A DNA stretch of 64,000 nt from Escherichia coli (GTDB lineage: Bacteria; Pseudomonadota; Gammaproteobacteria; Enterobacterales; Enterobacteriaceae). Where the stretch lies: the NCBI RefSeq assembly GCF_030013595.1, contig NZ_CP122768.1, one strand, 5' to 3'. Numbering within the stretch: position 1 is the first letter of the stretch; each line of letters begins with the position of its first letter. The translations under genes were made by a program, and so were the position numbers. The notes below the pieces were generated by a model. That model saw only the letters and a program-made list of their open reading frames with translations, did not search any database and was not told where the DNA came from. This document shows, one piece after another, positions 23,098 through 47,641 of the stretch.

Positions 23098-24338
23098 TGT
23101 TTTTCCAGGGGCTTTTTCAACGCAAAAATAACACCCCCGTCACAACGCCCGGGATGCTTGCGGAAGAACTTGGATTGTCATACGACACCTATACCGGAAA
23201 GCGGATCAGCAGCCAGCGGGCCATGCGGCTGACGGCGGTCTATTCCTGCGTCAGGGTGCTGGCGGAGTCTGTTGGTATGCTGCCCTGCAGCCTCTACAAA
23301 ATCACCGGTACCCTTAAAACACGGGCGGTAGATGAACGACTGCATAAGCTGGTTTCGGCAAAACCTAATGGCTACATGACGCCGCAGGAATTCTGGGAGC
23401 TGGTCATTGTCTGCCTGTGTCTGCGGGGTAATTTTTACGCCTACAAGGTAAAGGCACTGGGGGAAGTGGTGGAGCTTCTTCCGATAGATCCGGGCTGTGT
23501 GGAACCGAAGCTGAACAGCCAGTGGCAGCCGGTTTATCAGGTGACGTTTCCGGATGGTTCCGTGGATGTGCTGACCCAGAATGAAATCTGGCATGTGCGC
23601 ACTCTGACGCTGGATGGACTTGTCGGGCTGAATCCCATTGCGTATGCGCGTGAGGCCATTTCACTGGCAGCGGCAACTGAGGAGCACGGCGCCAGGTTGT
23701 TTGGTAACGGCGCTGTGACATCCGGTGTGTTGCGTACGGATCAACAACTTTCTGATCAGGCTTATGCGCGTATCAAAAAGGACTTTGAGGAACGGCATGT
23801 CGGGCTGGGAAATTCTCATCGTCCGATGATTCTGGAAATGGGGCTGGACTGGAAAACGGTGGCACTGAATGCCGAGGACAGCCAGTTCCTGGAAACCCGC
23901 AAGTTTCAGCTGGAAGAAATCTGTCGCCTGTTCCGCGTACCGCTGCATATGGTGCAGAACACCGATCGCGCCACCTTCAACAATATTGAAGAGCTGGGGC
24001 TTGGTTTCATTAACTATTCCCTTGTGCCGTATCTGACCCGTATTGAACAGCGGATCAATACAGGGCTGGTCAGGGAGAGCAAACAGGGGAGGTTTTACGC
24101 CAAATTTAATGCCGGAGCATTGTTGCGTGGCGACATGAAATCCCGCTTTGAAGCGTATGCCACGGGGATCAACTGGGGGATTTATTCCCCTAATGACTGC
24201 CGTGATCTGGAGGATATGAATCCCCGACCGGGCGGTGATGTGTATCTGACACCGATGAACATGACCACCAGTCCCTCTGCTGGCGATGACAACGGTAAGA
24301 AAAAGGAGAGTGGAGATGCAGACAAAACAGCGTCTTGA
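23097..24338 (+). CDS. Portal protein (HK97 family)
   Basis: 413-aa protein in the conserved position after terminase. Confidence 0.85.
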   Translation: MFFQGLFQRKNNTPVTTPGMLAEELGLSYDTYTGKRISSQRAMRLTAVYSCVRVLAESVGMLPCSLYKITGTLKTRAVDERLHKLVSAKPNGYMTPQEFWELVIVCLCLRGNFYAYKVKALGEVVELLPIDPGCVEPKLNSQWQPVYQVTFPDGSVDVLTQNEIWHVRTLTLDGLVGLNPIAYAREAISLAAATEEHGARLFGNGAVTSGVLRTDQQLSDQAYARIKKDFEERHVGLGNSHRPMILEMGLDWKTVALNAEDSQFLETRKFQLEEICRLFRVPLHMVQNTDRATFNNIEELGLGFINYSLVPYLTRIEQRINTGLVRESKQGRFYAKFNAGALLRGDMKSRFEAYATGINWGIYSPNDCRDLEDMNPRPGGDVYLTPMNMTTSPSAGDDNGKKKESGDADKTAS

Positions 24339-38928: not shown

Positions 38929-38939
38929 GTGGGGTGAAT

Positions 38940-41900
38940 ATGGCAGTAAAGATTTCAGGTGTACTGAAAGACGGCACAGGAAAACCGGTACAGAACTGCA
39001 CAATCCAGCTGAAAGCAAAACGTAACAGCACCACGGTGGTGGTGAACACGCTGGCCTCAGAAAATCCGGATGAAGCCGGGCGTTACAGCATGGACGTTGA
39101 GTACGGTCAGTACAGCGTTATTCTGTTGGTGGAAGGATTCCCGCCGTCACATGCCGGGACCATCACCGTGTATGAAGATTCCCGACCCGGTACGCTGAAT
39201 GATTTTCTCGGTGCCATGACGGAGGATGATGCCCGTCCGGAGGCACTGCGCCGTTTTGAACTGATGGTGGAAGAGGTGGCGCGTAACGCGTCCGCGGTGG
39301 CACAGAACACGGCAGCCGCGAAGAAGTCAGCCAGCGATGCCGGCACATCAGCCCGTGAGGCGGCAACCCATGCGACTGATGCTGCAGGCTCAGCACGCGC
39401 AGCCAGCACGTCAGCCGGACAGGCCGCGTCGTCGGCTCAGTCAGCGTCTTCCAGCGCAGGAACGGCATCAACAAAGGCCACTGAAGCGGAAAAAAGTGCT
39501 GCCGCTGCAGAGTCCTCAAAAAGCGCGGCGGCCACCAGTGCCGGTGCGGCGAAAACGTCAGAAACGAATGCCGCAGCGTCACAACAATCAGCAGCCACTT
39601 CTGCATCCACCGCGACTACGAAAGCGTCAGAAGCTGCCACCTCAGCCCGGGATGCGGCGGCCTCAAAAGAGGCAGCGAAATCATCAGAAACGAACGCATC
39701 CTCGAGCGCCAGTAGCGCAGCTTCCTCGGCAACGGCGGCAGGAAATTCCGCGAAGGCGGCAAAAACGTCAGAGACGAACGCCAGGTCTTCTGAAACGGCA
39801 GCGGGACAGAGCGCCTCGGCTGCGGCAGGCTCAAAAACAGCGGCTGCATCATCTGCCAGTGCAGCGTCAACAAGTGCCGGGCAGGCCTCAGCCAGTGCCA
39901 CCGCCGCCGGAAAATCGGCAGAAAGCGCCGCATCGTCTGCTTCAACAGCCACAACGAAGGCTGGCGAAGCCACTGAACAGGCCAGCGCAGCAGCGAGGTC
40001 TGCTTCCGCAGCGAAGACATCCGAAACGAACGCGAAAGCGTCGGAAACCAGCGCAGAATCCTCAAAAACGGCAGCCGCATCGTCCGCCAGTTCGGCAGTG
40101 TCATCGGCATCATCTGCGTCTGCTTCAAAAGATGAGGCGACCAGACAGGCGTCAGCAGCGAAGGGCAGCGCCACGACGGCATCCACGAAGGCGACAGAGG
40201 CAGCTGGCAGTGCGAGGGCAGCAGCTCAGAGCAAAAGTACGGCGGAATCTGCAGCAACGCGCGCTGAGACAGCGGCAAAACGGGCAGAGGATATTGCATC
40301 CGCCGTGGCGCTTGAGGATGCGAGCACGACGAAAAAGGGGATAGTACAGCTCAGCAGTGCGACCAACAGTACGTCTGAAACGCTGGCGGCAACGCCAAAG
40401 GCAGTAAAATCAGCCTATGACAATGCAGAGAAACGTCTGCAGAAAGACCAGAACGGCGCTGATATACCCGATAAGGGACGCTTCCTGAACAACATTAACG
40501 CGGTCAGTAAAACAGACTTTGCTGATAAGCGTGGTATGCGTTATGTGCGGGTTAACGCTCCTGCAGGTGCAACATCTGGAAAATATTACCCTGTTGTTGT
40601 TATGCGTTCTGCTGGCTCAGTAAGCGAACTGGCATCAAGGGTCATTATCACCACGGCAACGCGAACCGCAGGCGATCCGATGAATAACTGCGAGTTTAAC
40701 GGGTTTGTTATGCCTGGTGGCTGGACTGACAGGGGGCGTTATGCTTATGGAATGTTCTGGCAATATCAAAACAATGAACGAGCCATCCACTCAATAATGA
40801 TGAGTAATAAGGGCGATGATTTGCGCTCTGTGTTCTATGTTGATGGTGCTGCTTTCCCTGTTTTTGCGTTTATTGAAGATGGCCTGTCAATATCCGCACC
40901 TGGTGCTGATCTCGTTGTTAATGATACGACCTATAAGTTTGGGGCAACAAATCCAGCGACGGAATGTATCGCGGCGGACGTTATCCTTGATTTTAAGAGT
41001 GGCCGTGGTTTTTATGAGTCCCATTCGTTAATCGTTAACGATAACTTGTCGTGCAAAAAACTTTTTGCCACAGACGAAATTGTAGCGCGTGGTGGTAATC
41101 AGATTCGAATGATAGGTGGGGAGTATGGTGCATTATGGCGTAATGATGGCGCTAAAACTTACCTGCTGCTTACCAATCAAGGTGATGTTTATGGTGGCTG
41201 GAATACATTAAGACCGTTTGCTATTGATAACGCAACCGGCGAACTGGTTATTGGAACCAAACTGTCCGCAAGTCTGAACGGTAATGCATTAACAGCAACA
41301 AAGCTGCAAACGCCAAGACTGGTTTCTGGGGTTGAGTTTGATGGTTCCAGAGATATTACTTTAACCGCTGCGCATGTTGCTGCTTTTGCCAGAAGAGCAA
41401 CGGATACGTATGCCGATGCGGATGGGGGCGTTCCCTGGAATGCCGAATCAGGCGCTTACAATGTCACCCGCTCTGGCAACAGCTATATTCTGGTTAACTT
41501 CTATACCGGAGTCGGAAGTTGCCGGACATTGCAGATGAAGGCGCATTACAGAAATGGAGGTCTGTTCTACCGTTCCTCAAGAGATGGCTATGGTTTTGAG
41601 GAAGACTGGGCAGAAGTTTATACCTCGAAAAATCTTCCACCAGAAAGCTACCCAGTCGGCGCACCAATCCCGTGGCCATCAGATACCGTTCCGTCTGGTT
41701 ATGCCCTGATGCAGGGGCAGACTTTTGACAAATCTGCTTACCCGAAACTTGCAGCCGCTTATCCGTCAGGCGTGATCCCTGATATGCGTGGCTGGACGAT
41801 TAAGGGCAAACCTGCCAGTGGTCGGGCCGTATTGTCTCAGGAACAGGACGGCATTAAATCGCACACCCACAGCGCCAGCGTATCCAGTACGGATTTGGGG

Positions 41901-42293
41901 ACGAAAACCACATCGTCGTTTGATTACGGCACTAAATCCACGAATAACACCGGGGCGCATACGCACAGTGTGAGCGGTACAGCCGCAAGTGCCGGAAACC
42001 ATACTCATAGTGTCACAGGCGCATCAGCAGTCAGCCAGTGGTCACAAAATGGGTCAGTACATAAGGTAGTGTCTGCGGCCAGTGTGAATACAAGTGCTGC
42101 AGGAGCACACACTCATAGTGTCAGCGGCACAGCTGCATCTGCAGGTGCTCACGCACATACTGTCGGTATTGGTGCTCATACGCACTCTGTTGCGATTGGC
42201 TCACATGGACACACTATCACCGTTAACGCTGCTGGTAACGCGGAAAACACCGTCAAAAACATCGCATTTAACTACATTGTGAGGCTTGCATAA
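38940..42293 (+). CDS. Side tail fibre protein (Stf-like) with long Ala/Ser-rich repeat region
   Basis: N-terminus [26 protein letters not shown].. (lambda Stf-like); GAHTHS-type repeats near the C-terminus. Confidence 0.85.
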
Positions 42294-42877
42294 TGGCATT
42301 CAGAATGAGTGAACAACCACGGACCATAAAAATTTATAATCTGCTGGCCGGAACTAATGAATTTATTGGTGAAGGTGATGCATATATTCCGCCTCATACA
42401 GGTCTGCCAGCAAACAGTACCGATATTGCACCGCCAGATATTCCGGCTGACTTTGTGGCTGTTTTCAACAGTGATGAGGCATCGTGGCATCTCGTTGAAG
42501 ACCATCGGGGTAAAACAGTTTATGACGTGGCATCAGGGGACGCGTTATTTATTTCTGAACTCGGTCCGTTACCGGAAAATGTTACCTGGTTATCGCCGGA
42601 AGGGGAATATCAGAAGTGGAACGGCACAGCCTGGGTGAAAGATGCAGAAGCAGAAAAACTATTCCGGATCCGGGAAGCGGAAGAAACAAAAAACAGCTTG
42701 ATGCAGGTAGCCAGTGAGCATATAGCGCCGCTTCAGGATGCTGTAGATCTGGAGATCGCAACGGAGGAAGAAAACTCGTTGCTGGAAGCCTGGAAGAAGT
42801 ATCGGGTGTTGCTGAACCGTGTTGATACATCAACTGCACCTGATATTGAGTGGCCGGAAGAACCAGACACAATGTAA
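42293..42877 (+). CDS. Tail fibre assembly protein (Tfa)
   Basis: 194 aa immediately after stf with overlapping start. Confidence 0.8.
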
Positions 42878-43243
42878 GCGAAAAAGAAAAACCGCAGACA
42901 CGACGTATGCAGGACGTGCTGCGGTTGGCTGGTGAACTTTCGATAGTGCGAGTATTGAATGATTTCCAGCCGTTATTGATTTTATATAACTGTAGTGGAG
43001 TTATTCAACACACAGGCAAAACGGAATAATCTGAGAAAAAAGCGTGCTTCGCCAATCAGGGGGGCGAAGCACGTCTGAATGACACCTGAAAATTTCCCGT
43101 CCGTTAAGTGTCCGCCCCGAGAGAAGTGGGGAACCATAACACCCTGTCGGGACGCAGAAAGAAACAACACAACTTGCAGGGATATTTCTCGATACTGCGT
43201 CAATGGTGGGGGATGTTAAATTATTACACTTAGTTACAAATAG

Positions 43244-43279
43244 AAAAGCCTCTGACTTCATAAGCAGAGGCTTTTCTTA
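43244..43279. terminator. Bidirectional hairpin terminator near the prophage right end
   Basis: agcctctg-N10-cagaggct with an A-run before and T-rich tract after. Confidence 0.45.
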
Positions 43280-43395
43280 AATGCGCGTGCATTTTGCGTG
43301 TATATTTTTGTCTTTTTCTGGTCCGCTCACTGTCTGGTCAGTGTCCATAAGTGACTGTTTTTATAGTCTCTGTCTGGTTGTGGTCCTGTCAAAAG

Positions 43396-43422
43396 TGGTG
43401 GAGCTGGCGGGAGTTGAACCCG
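43396..43422. repeat. att core, right copy (within the ssrA 3' end)
   Basis: Identical 27-mer to 292..318. Confidence 0.8.
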
Positions 43423-43758
43423 CGTCCGAAATTCCTACGTCCTCGGTACTACATGCTTAGTCAGTCTTTACATTCGCTTGCCAGCTGCGGACGGACACGC
43501 CACTAACAAACTAGCCTGATTAAGTTTTAACGCTTCAACCCCAGGCAGGGCTTCCACGCGATCTCTTTTGGGTTTGACCTCTCTTGATCCCCGTCCTAAG
43601 AGCGGAGGCTAGGGAGAGAGGGCTCTAAGCAGGTTATTAAGCTGCTAAAGCGTAGTTTTCGTCGTTTGCGACTATTTTTTGCGGCTTTTTACGAGGCCAA
43701 CCGCCCCTCGGCATGCACCTTGGGTTTCGCAAATCCCGTCGAATCCAGAATCAGCCCC
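43396..43758 (-). ncRNA. ssrA: tmRNA (SsrA), 363 nt
   Basis: Reverse complement begins ggggctgattctggattcgacgggatttgcg.. and ends ..gggttcaactcccgccagctccacca; contains the tag-reading frame (..gcaaacgacgaaaactacgctttagcagcttaa). Confidence 0.95.
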
Positions 43759-43972
43759 AATGTGTAACGGTAAGTATACCAGATTCATGAGTGCCATGAC
43801 CAGCCTCAATGGCGTTATCGTTAAAGATTTAGCACCCATGTAGCCTGATTTTTATTCGATTAAGCAATGGGATGGCAACATTTGTGTCGGATGTGATAGC
43901 CAATAAGATGTTCATTCGCGCCGCCGGAGAGGGAGGCGCGGTGAGGAACTGGTCAATAATTGGAGTGCAGGT

Positions 43973-44455
43973 TTAACGGTGGGCGTTTTTCATGATACGC
44001 GCTTTATCCACCTGCCATTCGCGCTCTTTGATATCTGAACGTTTATCGTGCTGTTTCTTACCTTTGGCGACGCCGATTTTCACTTTGCACCAGGCATTTT
44101 TCCAGTACAGGGAGAGCGCCACTACGGTATAGCCTTCTCGATTGACGCGACCGTACAATGAGTCCAGTTCGCGCTGGTTGAGAAGTAACTTGCGGGTACG
44201 GGTAGGATCGCACACCACATGCGTGGAGGCCACAGCCATTGGCGTGATGTTAGCGCCAAACAGAAATGCCTCTCCGTCACGCAGAAGGACGTAGCTGTCG
44301 CTGATATTGGCTTTTCCTGCGCGCAGGGATTTAACCTCCCAGCCTTGCAGGGCAAGTCCCGCCTCGAACTCTTCTTCGATAAAGTATTCGTGCCGGGCGC
44401 GCTTGTTAAGCGCGATGGTCGCTGAACCAGGTTTATGTGCTTTTTTCTTCGTCAT
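43973..44455 (-). CDS. smpB: SsrA-binding protein SmpB
   Basis: 160 aa, [45 protein letters not shown].. Confidence 0.95.
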
Positions 44456-44586
44456 AAGCGTCGTGAATCATCGGTAATCTGAAATCGAAAACACCCCATA
44501 TCAATCCTGCGGGGGACAAGGCTCTATCTTAGCATGAACCCGATGTTACCCAGCGCCGGGATAGCGTTTTTTTTACAGCAGGATAA

Positions 44587-45063
44587 ATGATATTATTTGT
44601 TGGATTTTTGTTGATGGAAATTGTTATGCCTCAGATTAGCCGGACCGCACTGGTACCCTACAGCGCGGAGCAAATGTATCAGTTAGTGAATGACGTTCAG
44701 TCTTATCCTCAGTTTTTGCCGGGTTGTACCGGAAGTCGGATTCTGGAGTCCACTCCTGGGCAGATGACTGCGGCGGTAGATGTCTCTAAGGCTGGGATCA
44801 GCAAAACGTTTACTACCCGCAACCAGTTGACCAGTAACCAAAGTATTCTTATGAATCTGGTGGATGGGCCGTTCAAGAAATTGATCGGTGGATGGAAGTT
44901 TACGCCGCTGAGCCAGGAGGCGTGTCGTATCGAGTTTCATCTCGATTTTGAGTTTACCAATAAGTTGATTGAACTCGCCTTTGGTCGCGTGTTTAAAGAG
45001 CTGGCGGCTAATATGGTCCGGGCTTTTACGGTTCGTGCGAAAGAGGTTTACAGTGCCAGGTAA
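44587..45063 (+). CDS. ratA: Ribosome association toxin RatA (SRPBCC family)
   Basis: 158-aa ORF matching E. coli RatA/YfjG as recalled. Confidence 0.85.
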
Positions 45064-47556: not shown

Positions 47557-47641
47557 AGTTGTTTTCCTGTATGAAAAACCATTACTGTTATTGTGTACAG
47601 TATAAACTGGTTTTATATACAGTAAAGAGGCTGGCGTAAAA

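Follow-up and report, generated by a model that had tools for sequence, protein, structure and literature searches.

What occupies the DNA between the last gene of a lambdoid prophage and the bacterial gene in which that prophage is inserted, and how much of this DNA belongs to the attachment site? The question is raised by 518 bases (42878–43395) that separate tfa from ssrA in a 64,000-nucleotide stretch of an Escherichia coli genome (contig NZ_CP122768.1), the whole of which is referred to here as the window. This interval is 100% identical in pig enterotoxigenic (ETEC) strains, for example ETEC1732. It is a non-coding, three-part patchwork of modules that have been exchanged between lambdoid phages, and it probably works as an att arm joined to a stack of leftward terminators.

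The prophage and its attachment site

The interval is framed by the following features:

42293..42877, plus strand: tfa (tail fibre assembly), the left boundary; stop codon at 42875–42877
43396..43758, minus strand: ssrA (tmRNA gene), the right boundary; Rfam tmRNA, 292.8 bits
43396..43422: att core, 27 bp at the ssrA 3′ end, identical to 292–318
292..450: second core copy (292–318) and P′ arm, with candidate arm-type sites at 378–385 and 389–396; the integrase gene comes next
451..1649, minus strand: tyrosine integrase with an arm-binding domain (Pfam PF12167 Arm-DNA-bind_2, E = 3e-19, and PF00589 Phage_integrase)

The tfa gene is a 194-aa ORF that matches the Pfam family Caudo_TAP (E = 3.7e-45) and is also annotated as tfa in RefSeq. 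On the other side of the interval, ARAGORN gives the tag peptide of ssrA as ANDENYALAA, and ssrA is followed by smpB. Because the core is duplicated at 292–318, where two minus-strand features, the integrase gene and an Xis-like ORF, adjoin it, the stretch from about 319 to 43395 is, judging from its sequence, a lambdoid prophage integrated in ssrA. The order in the circular phage is tfa, the 518-base interval, core, P′ arm, and int, which is the layout of lambda.

The integrase gene (387–1649, minus strand) appears to be frameshifted near its 3′ end. The reading frame breaks after ...AIRKK at an A-run, near 640–700, and the last 71 amino acids, including the catalytic end, lie in another frame (ORF 451–906; 94% identical to the LMessi integrase). 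Either the frameshift is real, in which case the prophage would be unable to excise, or it reflects a homopolymer sequencing error. Since the integrase looks frameshifted, the attachment arm described below (module C) may be out of use.

Several minor features of the prophage and its left end were also recorded. To the left of the second core copy, the segment 230–291 (TGTTGGTGTTGTCCTTGCACCGTCC) resembles the repeat-rich end of a P arm and may be a remnant of another element formerly inserted at ssrA. The coordinates expected for the left end of the window in ETEC1732 (NZ_CP122823.1 1223477–1227000) contain two integrase genes in a different arrangement; this annotation is misaligned with the left end of the window and was left unused. 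The window is probably from another strain, unless the two prophages are of unequal length. The prophage carries a tRNA-Gly(TCC) gene at 17443–17517 (plus strand). In its side tail-fibre protein (38934–42293, plus strand), a low-complexity stretch rich in Ala, Ser, and Thr is very long and is accompanied by long shadow ORFs on each strand; HTHS motifs are repeated near the C-terminus.

Coding content of the interval

The first-pass annotation recognized no credible ORF between tfa and the att core, and this assessment holds. The identical RefSeq stretch of ETEC1732 has no annotated feature in the gap from tfa to ssrA, no protein family is matched, and close homologues of the interval differ by 1-nt indels. 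The six longest candidate ORFs (41–86 aa) have no Pfam match and reach PHROG families only at E = 0.14–0.38.

A small protein gene hidden in the interval, either a 59-aa ORF (42850–43029, plus strand) or a Cys-rich 46-aa ORF (43079–43219, plus strand), is hardly credible. PGAP does call a homologue of the 59-aa ORF a hypothetical protein in strain TUM1881, and one reading frame is open on each strand across the part of the interval nearest tfa (module A, below). However, the same 59-aa ORF is unannotated in the identical strain ETEC1732 and its start falls within tfa, the frames differ among homologues, the Pfam and PHROG searches gave no significant match, and the ORFs pass through terminator stems. 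The absence of genes is accounted for if the interval consists of an att arm and inherited terminators.

Mosaic structure

The similarity searches break the interval into parts with separate histories of occurrence: query positions 1–135, 1–345, and 372–571 differ from one another in the phages and prophages that they match. The following modules are distinguished:

42880..42984, minus strand: module A, a conserved element of about 100 nt with homologues in lambdoid phages, apparently orphaned from dinI
42985..43092, minus strand: module B1, a putative relic that carries hairpin 2 and recurs at the right ends of numerous other prophages
43093..43205: module B2, non-coding filler common only to ompW-integrated prophages, with 1-nt indels among homologues
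43209..43395: module C, assigned as the attP P arm of an ssrA-specific integration module by alignment with ssrA-type attP

Of 5426 complete E. coli genomes, 3137 (58%) match some part of the interval, for the most part module A.

It had been proposed that the region as a whole probably carries attP arm binding sites. Taken literally, all 518 bp would be a P arm full of Int, Xis, and IHF sites, a reading that we consider very unlikely. The interval does sit between the last phage gene and the core, and low-stringency repeats occur throughout it. However, the DNA from 42878 to 43205 is shared with prophages that have other integrases and other sites (ompW and tRNA-Ser), as well as with lambda, HK97, and phi80. 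Because it occurs in prophages at other sites, it cannot provide arm sites for this integrase. Moreover, the ssrA-type arms of other phages start only at about 43209, and what precedes them is unrelated (a tail-fibre gene or the promoter of dinI), and the candidate arm-type motif is confined to 43285–43303 and the P′ arm. The proposal thus stands for the 187 bp adjoining ssrA (43209–43395), which are found in ssrA-type phages only, and falls for the other 330 bp (42878–43205).

The comparison yields a rule for telling an att arm from adjacent non-coding DNA, namely whether the sequence travels with the integration site. Here 43209–43395 is inherited with the site and 42878–43205 is not, which places the boundary at about 43209. 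The region is otherwise mostly ordinary, and it matters little for this window.

The P arm adjacent to ssrA

Module C can be aligned from end to end with the attP of phage LMessi, which is contiguous, and alignments were also obtained with PhiR12_1, the Cronobacter phage phiES15, and CP-1639. It is common only to phages and prophages that integrate in ssrA (CP-1639, LMessi, PhiR12, phiES15, and Sakai Sp17). In the Sakai genome, module C forms the first bases of Sp17, directly after ssrA. A pattern search of viral contigs recovered 47 distinct copies, nearly all of which continue into the ssrA 3′ end, and the module is present in 571 E. coli genomes, nearly always as one copy each. The prophage has a duplicated core that matches the bacterial target, an integrase of the arm-binding kind, and an arm-type motif on both arms. 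On these alignments and motifs, we take module C to be the genuine P arm in the attP of a lambdoid phage that integrates in ssrA. It contains two groups of repeats:

43285..43303, plus strand: two tandem candidate arm-type integrase sites, GCGTGCAT and GCGTGTAT, starting at 43285 and 43296, 11 bp apart
43309–43329, 43331–43347, and 43371–43391, plus strand: three direct repeats TGTCT..GGTCC, between the arm-type candidates and the core

The search for arm-type repeats that the first-pass annotation had recommended was rewarded by the motif RYGTGCAT, which forms a tandem pair with an 11-bp period at 43285/43296 and again in the P′ arm at 378/389, where the pair spans 378–396. The tandem candidates are conserved in all aligned ssrA-type arms. 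The TGTCT..GGTCC repeats are candidate sites for Xis, Int, or a host factor, and we infer that they would bind Int or Xis. Even when one mismatch is allowed, the P arm lacks the IHF consensus (WATCAANNNNTTR), which has four one-mismatch matches in the P′ arm.

Hairpins of the interval

Three hairpins had been reported, at about 42893–42925, 43036–43068, and 43244–43279. All of them are real, to within a few bases, and they are joined by a fourth stem-loop (42927–42971) that was absent from the first list:

42890..42926, minus strand: hairpin 1, the terminator hairpin of module A, with the minus-strand T-run TTTTTCTTTTT from 42891 down to 42881
42927..42971, minus strand: stem-loop 1 of module A (GGCTGG...CCAGCC), in which the loop is large and hardly varies
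43043..43073, minus strand: hairpin 2, a perfect 11-bp GC-rich stem (43043–43053/43063–43073); z = −3.35
43242..43277, either strand: hairpin 3, a two-way terminator candidate; z = −4.64 and −4.16

The folding z-scores of the hairpins range from −3.35 to −4.72, and 0 or 1 of 200 dinucleotide shuffles folded as well. Hairpins 1 and 2 have a T-run on the minus strand only, hairpin 3 on both strands. The arrangement that defines an intrinsic terminator, a GC-rich stem-loop followed by a U-run, is accordingly found on the minus strand for hairpins 1, 2, and 3 and also on the plus strand for hairpin 3. For hairpin 2, the minus-strand terminator geometry noted at first reading is borne out by TTTTTT running from 43041 down to 43036; the span first given for this hairpin (43036–43068) takes in the A-run. 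A generic terminator scan listed none of the three hairpins. This is no contradiction, since their loops are 9–10 nt long (the limit of the scan is 8 nt) or their stems are bulged. We infer that the hairpins terminate transcription, and a stack of such terminators would protect the tail-fibre genes against read-through that comes from ssrA and int.

Hairpin 3 and the tmRNA gene

Hairpin 3, at the outer end of module C, is a perfect 13-bp palindrome (43242–43254/43265–43277). Flanked by an A-run and, on the opposite side, by a T-run, it is terminator-like on both strands. The hairpin is kept in all relatives while the stem itself varies (for example, GCCTCTG/CAGAGGC versus ACCCCAG/CTGGGGT). Compensatory changes are seen at 5 of the 13 pairs and 89.9% of cells are paired, a score that 0 of 500 shuffles reach; slid controls likewise fall short of these values.

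The hairpin lies 119–154 nt from the core. The corresponding distances are about 147–180 nt for lambda tI and 137–186 nt for the annotated HK97 sib, and this similarity makes hairpin 3 the positional counterpart of tI. In the circular phage, hairpin 3 would lie downstream of int across attP, like lambda tI/sib, and integration would part the hairpin from int. Beyond the mature tmRNA end, hairpin 3 is the first structure in the lysogen that resembles a terminator. The tmRNA gene ssrA is heavily transcribed, and hairpin 3 probably ends the tmRNA precursor. Read on the plus strand, the same hairpin could stop phage transcripts from running antisense into ssrA.

In lambda, sib acts as a retroregulator: read-through of tI gives a long duplex that is cut by RNase III. 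The corresponding comparison failed for hairpin 3, in which the stem stays at 13 bp and no similarity to lambda or HK97 sib was detected. Retroregulation by RNase III is therefore unsupported here, and it is the terminator position alone that matches. The two-way look of hairpin 3 is a further difference from lambda tI/sib.

In its overall layout the locus is like the attP regions of lambda and HK97. In each case tail-fibre genes are followed by a non-coding stretch, a terminator, the P arm, the core, the P′ arm, and int/xis on the opposite strand, with the terminator about 120–190 nt beyond the core and parted from int by integration. The integrases share an arm-binding domain, and tandem repeats are present in both arms. 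Unlike lambda, the window has the ssrA 3′ end as its core, and hairpin 3 would also serve the tmRNA gene in the lysogen.

Probable relics of other attachment modules

Of the 5426 E. coli genomes, 943 contain module B1 or its portion around hairpin 2. Its copies are located at prophage right ends, after cdtABC, nleG clusters, and other cargo, and the segment 43031–43092 is also found in phages ev099, mEp332, and PhiR70_1. In ev099, the homologue of hairpin 2 lies about 150 nt from a 3′ fragment of tRNA-Ser(CGA) that ends in CCA, which is the tI position of that attP. The same tRNA-Ser-like fragment is found upstream of the hairpin 2 homologue in IHE3034 and strain S7. Hairpin 2 is probably the tI-position terminator of a tRNA-Ser-type arm.

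Module B2 is much rarer, being covered in only 74 genomes. In SLK172 and TUM1881, it is contiguous with modules A and B1 beside an ompW fragment. The most likely source of B1 and B2, from this configuration, is an ompW-type phage in which A, B1, and B2 were already combined. The whole of 42985–43205 is probably a relic of other right-end and att modules, of the tRNA-Ser type and the ompW type. A CA-rich run in B2 (about 43163–43175) suggested AgvB/GcvB mimicry; this candidate was rejected, as AgvB is located at the Q/PR′ site, Rfam gave no match, and B2 is poorly conserved.

The DNA between module C and module A differs in related prophages. In Sakai Sp17 the order is ssrA, module C, LexA boxes, dinI, module A, tfa. 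LexA boxes and dinI also stand beside module C in CP-1639 and PhiR12_1, and CP-1639 has module A after dinI as well. The interval under study contains no LexA box, and no dinI gene was found in the window. The window is thus like Sakai Sp17 and CP-1639 in having the same P-arm family directly after ssrA and module A beside the end of the tail-fibre genes, and unlike them in having B1 and B2, rather than a LexA-controlled dinI, between the arm and module A. The presence of LexA boxes and dinI in the relatives, and the lack of both here, suggest that B1 and B2 replaced a LexA-controlled dinI cassette. The segment 42880–42984 would then represent the conserved 3′ UTR and terminator of the lost dinI-family gene. 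Elsewhere in the window, a perfect LexA box (TACTGTTATTGTGTACAGTA) is located at 47585–47604, immediately upstream of recN, an SOS gene for which such a box is expected.

Distribution and structure of module A

Module A is a very widespread and strongly conserved non-coding element of lambdoid phages, and it is present in lambda itself. It is 84–96% identical to a stretch downstream of the tail-fibre genes in HK97, mEp460, phi80, and HK633, and it also occurs in Stx phages. In lambda, a copy with 88% identity lies at 24162–24259, in the non-coding DNA that separates ea31 from ea47 (the b region), and is oriented with the leftward transcripts; the 5′ arm of its first stem is altered, with AACTGG in place of GGCTGG. 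A fragment is also found in E. coli K-12 MG1655 (about 304228–304309, the ykgJ/ecpE spacer), where it comes after a remnant of the dinI C-terminus. The annotators of HK633 read the sequence shared with this K-12 spacer as attP; it is more likely to be the widespread module A.

Most copies are tied to dinI. Of 135 copies collected, 87 begin just after a dinI-like stop codon, and the copies in Sakai Sp17 and Sp15 come after dinI. Module A is therefore normally the 3′ UTR and terminator of that gene. These 87 homologues share the mRNA 3′ end and its terminator with a gene, and the copy in the window, which has no gene upstream, does not. The 3′ UTR of the chromosomal dinI of E. coli has no similarity to module A. 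A DinI protein scan returned only near-identical genes and so provides no independent test of 3′-UTR conservation.

Module A folds at −30.5 kcal/mol (z = −4.72). The stem of hairpin 1 is kept in homologues by means of different arms (CCGCAG/CUGCGG, CCGUGG/CCACGG, and CCGCCG/CGGCGG), some of which are chimeric. Single-sequence folds were used for this hairpin because the RNAalifold consensus failed, with bulges shifting between variants. Many homologues have a poor T-run after hairpin 1, for example GCGGCTTCCAAC, which is the commonest variant. Termination alone therefore fails to explain the conservation of module A, and stem-loop 1 and the hairpin loop are indeed more conserved than a terminator requires.

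The small-RNA question

The extra conservation of module A bears on an earlier suggestion that the region possibly encodes a small RNA. In its most developed form, the minus strand of module A would be a regulatory small RNA that is absent from RNA family libraries and normally arises as the 3′-terminal part of a dinI-family transcript induced by the SOS response. In the window, this RNA would have a gene of its own, about 92 nt long, with a promoter-like sequence to drive it and an end at hairpin 1, where a long U tail would suit Hfq:

42979..43008, minus strand: promoter-like TTGAAT-18-TAAAAT at the B1/A junction; a consensus match only, 9/12

We regard this possibility as doubtful. Several observations favour it. 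Module A remains about 83% identical behind dinI genes whose coding sequences are only 54% identical (phi80 dinL versus mEp460 dinI). Conservation starts right after the stop codon and takes in a near-invariant 45-nt stem-loop and a conserved hairpin loop, and the architecture is that of a stem-loop, a terminator, and a U-run in succession. The element is also what chiefly accounts for the matches in 3137 of 5426 E. coli genomes. The promoter-like site is conserved in six aligned copies in which B1 and A are linked. In helix 1, G-U outnumber C-A combinations by 9 to 4, which slightly favours the dinI-sense strand and is weakly informative. A precedent exists in DinR, a small RNA from a dinI 3′ UTR (PMC10907235).

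Other observations speak against a small RNA. The promoter match is no better than chance, shuffled sequences yielding about as many sites, and on its own it is not significant. There is no LexA box here, and the U-run is poor in many copies. A search of the window for complements to the module A loop gave only chance-level 10-mers. Module A matches no Rfam family. When 42860–43400 was compared with Rfam 15 under lax filters, the best matches were terminator look-alikes of 10–22 bits, in families with thresholds of 39–300 bits; across 41500–45000 the scan returned only tmRNA, IS009 (in tfa), and further terminator look-alikes. Nor is module A the known phage RNA PasB, and it is likewise distinct from AgvB and AsxR, whose place is the Q/PR′ site (PMC4104026). 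Among published Hfq peaks, the sole one close to a homologue is that of EcOnc47 in Sakai Sp15, which seems to overlap a copy of module A, is on the opposite strand, and lacks Northern confirmation; its placement on the tail-fibre-sense strand (PMC4104026 Table S2) uses an estimated genome-version shift of +131 to +152. Finally, the conservation could reflect use of module A as a recombination junction, and chimeric hairpin arms are indeed seen. The pattern fits a conserved recombination junction that also serves as the final leftward terminator ahead of the convergent late operon.

If module A did encode an SOS-linked small RNA, it would be a phage counterpart to Klebsiella DinR, and in the present lysogen the RNA, cut loose from dinI behind a new promoter-like sequence, could be made without DNA damage. 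DinR is an Hfq-dependent small RNA cut from the Klebsiella dinI mRNA's 3′ end (PMC10907235). By analogy, module A may be likened to it as the 3′ end of a dinI-family transcript in most phages, ending in a shared terminator. It differs in that DinR comes from the chromosomal dinI and has a Klebsiella-specific seed, whereas the window has no dinI gene at all. PasB, AgvB, AsxR, and the EcOnc series are also comparable, being short terminator-ended RNAs from the spacers of lambdoid prophages that are often convergent with phage genes. Their locations set them apart from module A: PasB, which lacks a homologue in the window, is found between tail genes I and J, AgvB and AsxR are found at the Q/PR′ site, and EcOnc47, near a copy of module A, is on the other strand and unvalidated.

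Other RNA matches

A full-length Rfam IS009 match (213.9 bits) is located at 42636–42834 (plus strand), within the tfa coding sequence. It is probably due to conservation of the tfa sequence and does not represent a separate RNA gene. PasB was considered because its flanks often carry IS009, and it was rejected, as the window has no significant match to it and PasB lies between tail genes I and J (E2348/69). In Sakai Sp15, an 82%-identical homologue of the EPEC small RNA PasB is present between tail genes I and J (NC_002695.2, about 2902857–2902926). It is at the site of this Sp15 homologue of PasB that Tree et al. placed EcOnc22, an Hfq-dependent RNA of about 85 nt. EcOnc22, EcOnc23, and EcOnc24 therefore look like PasB homologues, a link that we did not find stated in either source paper.
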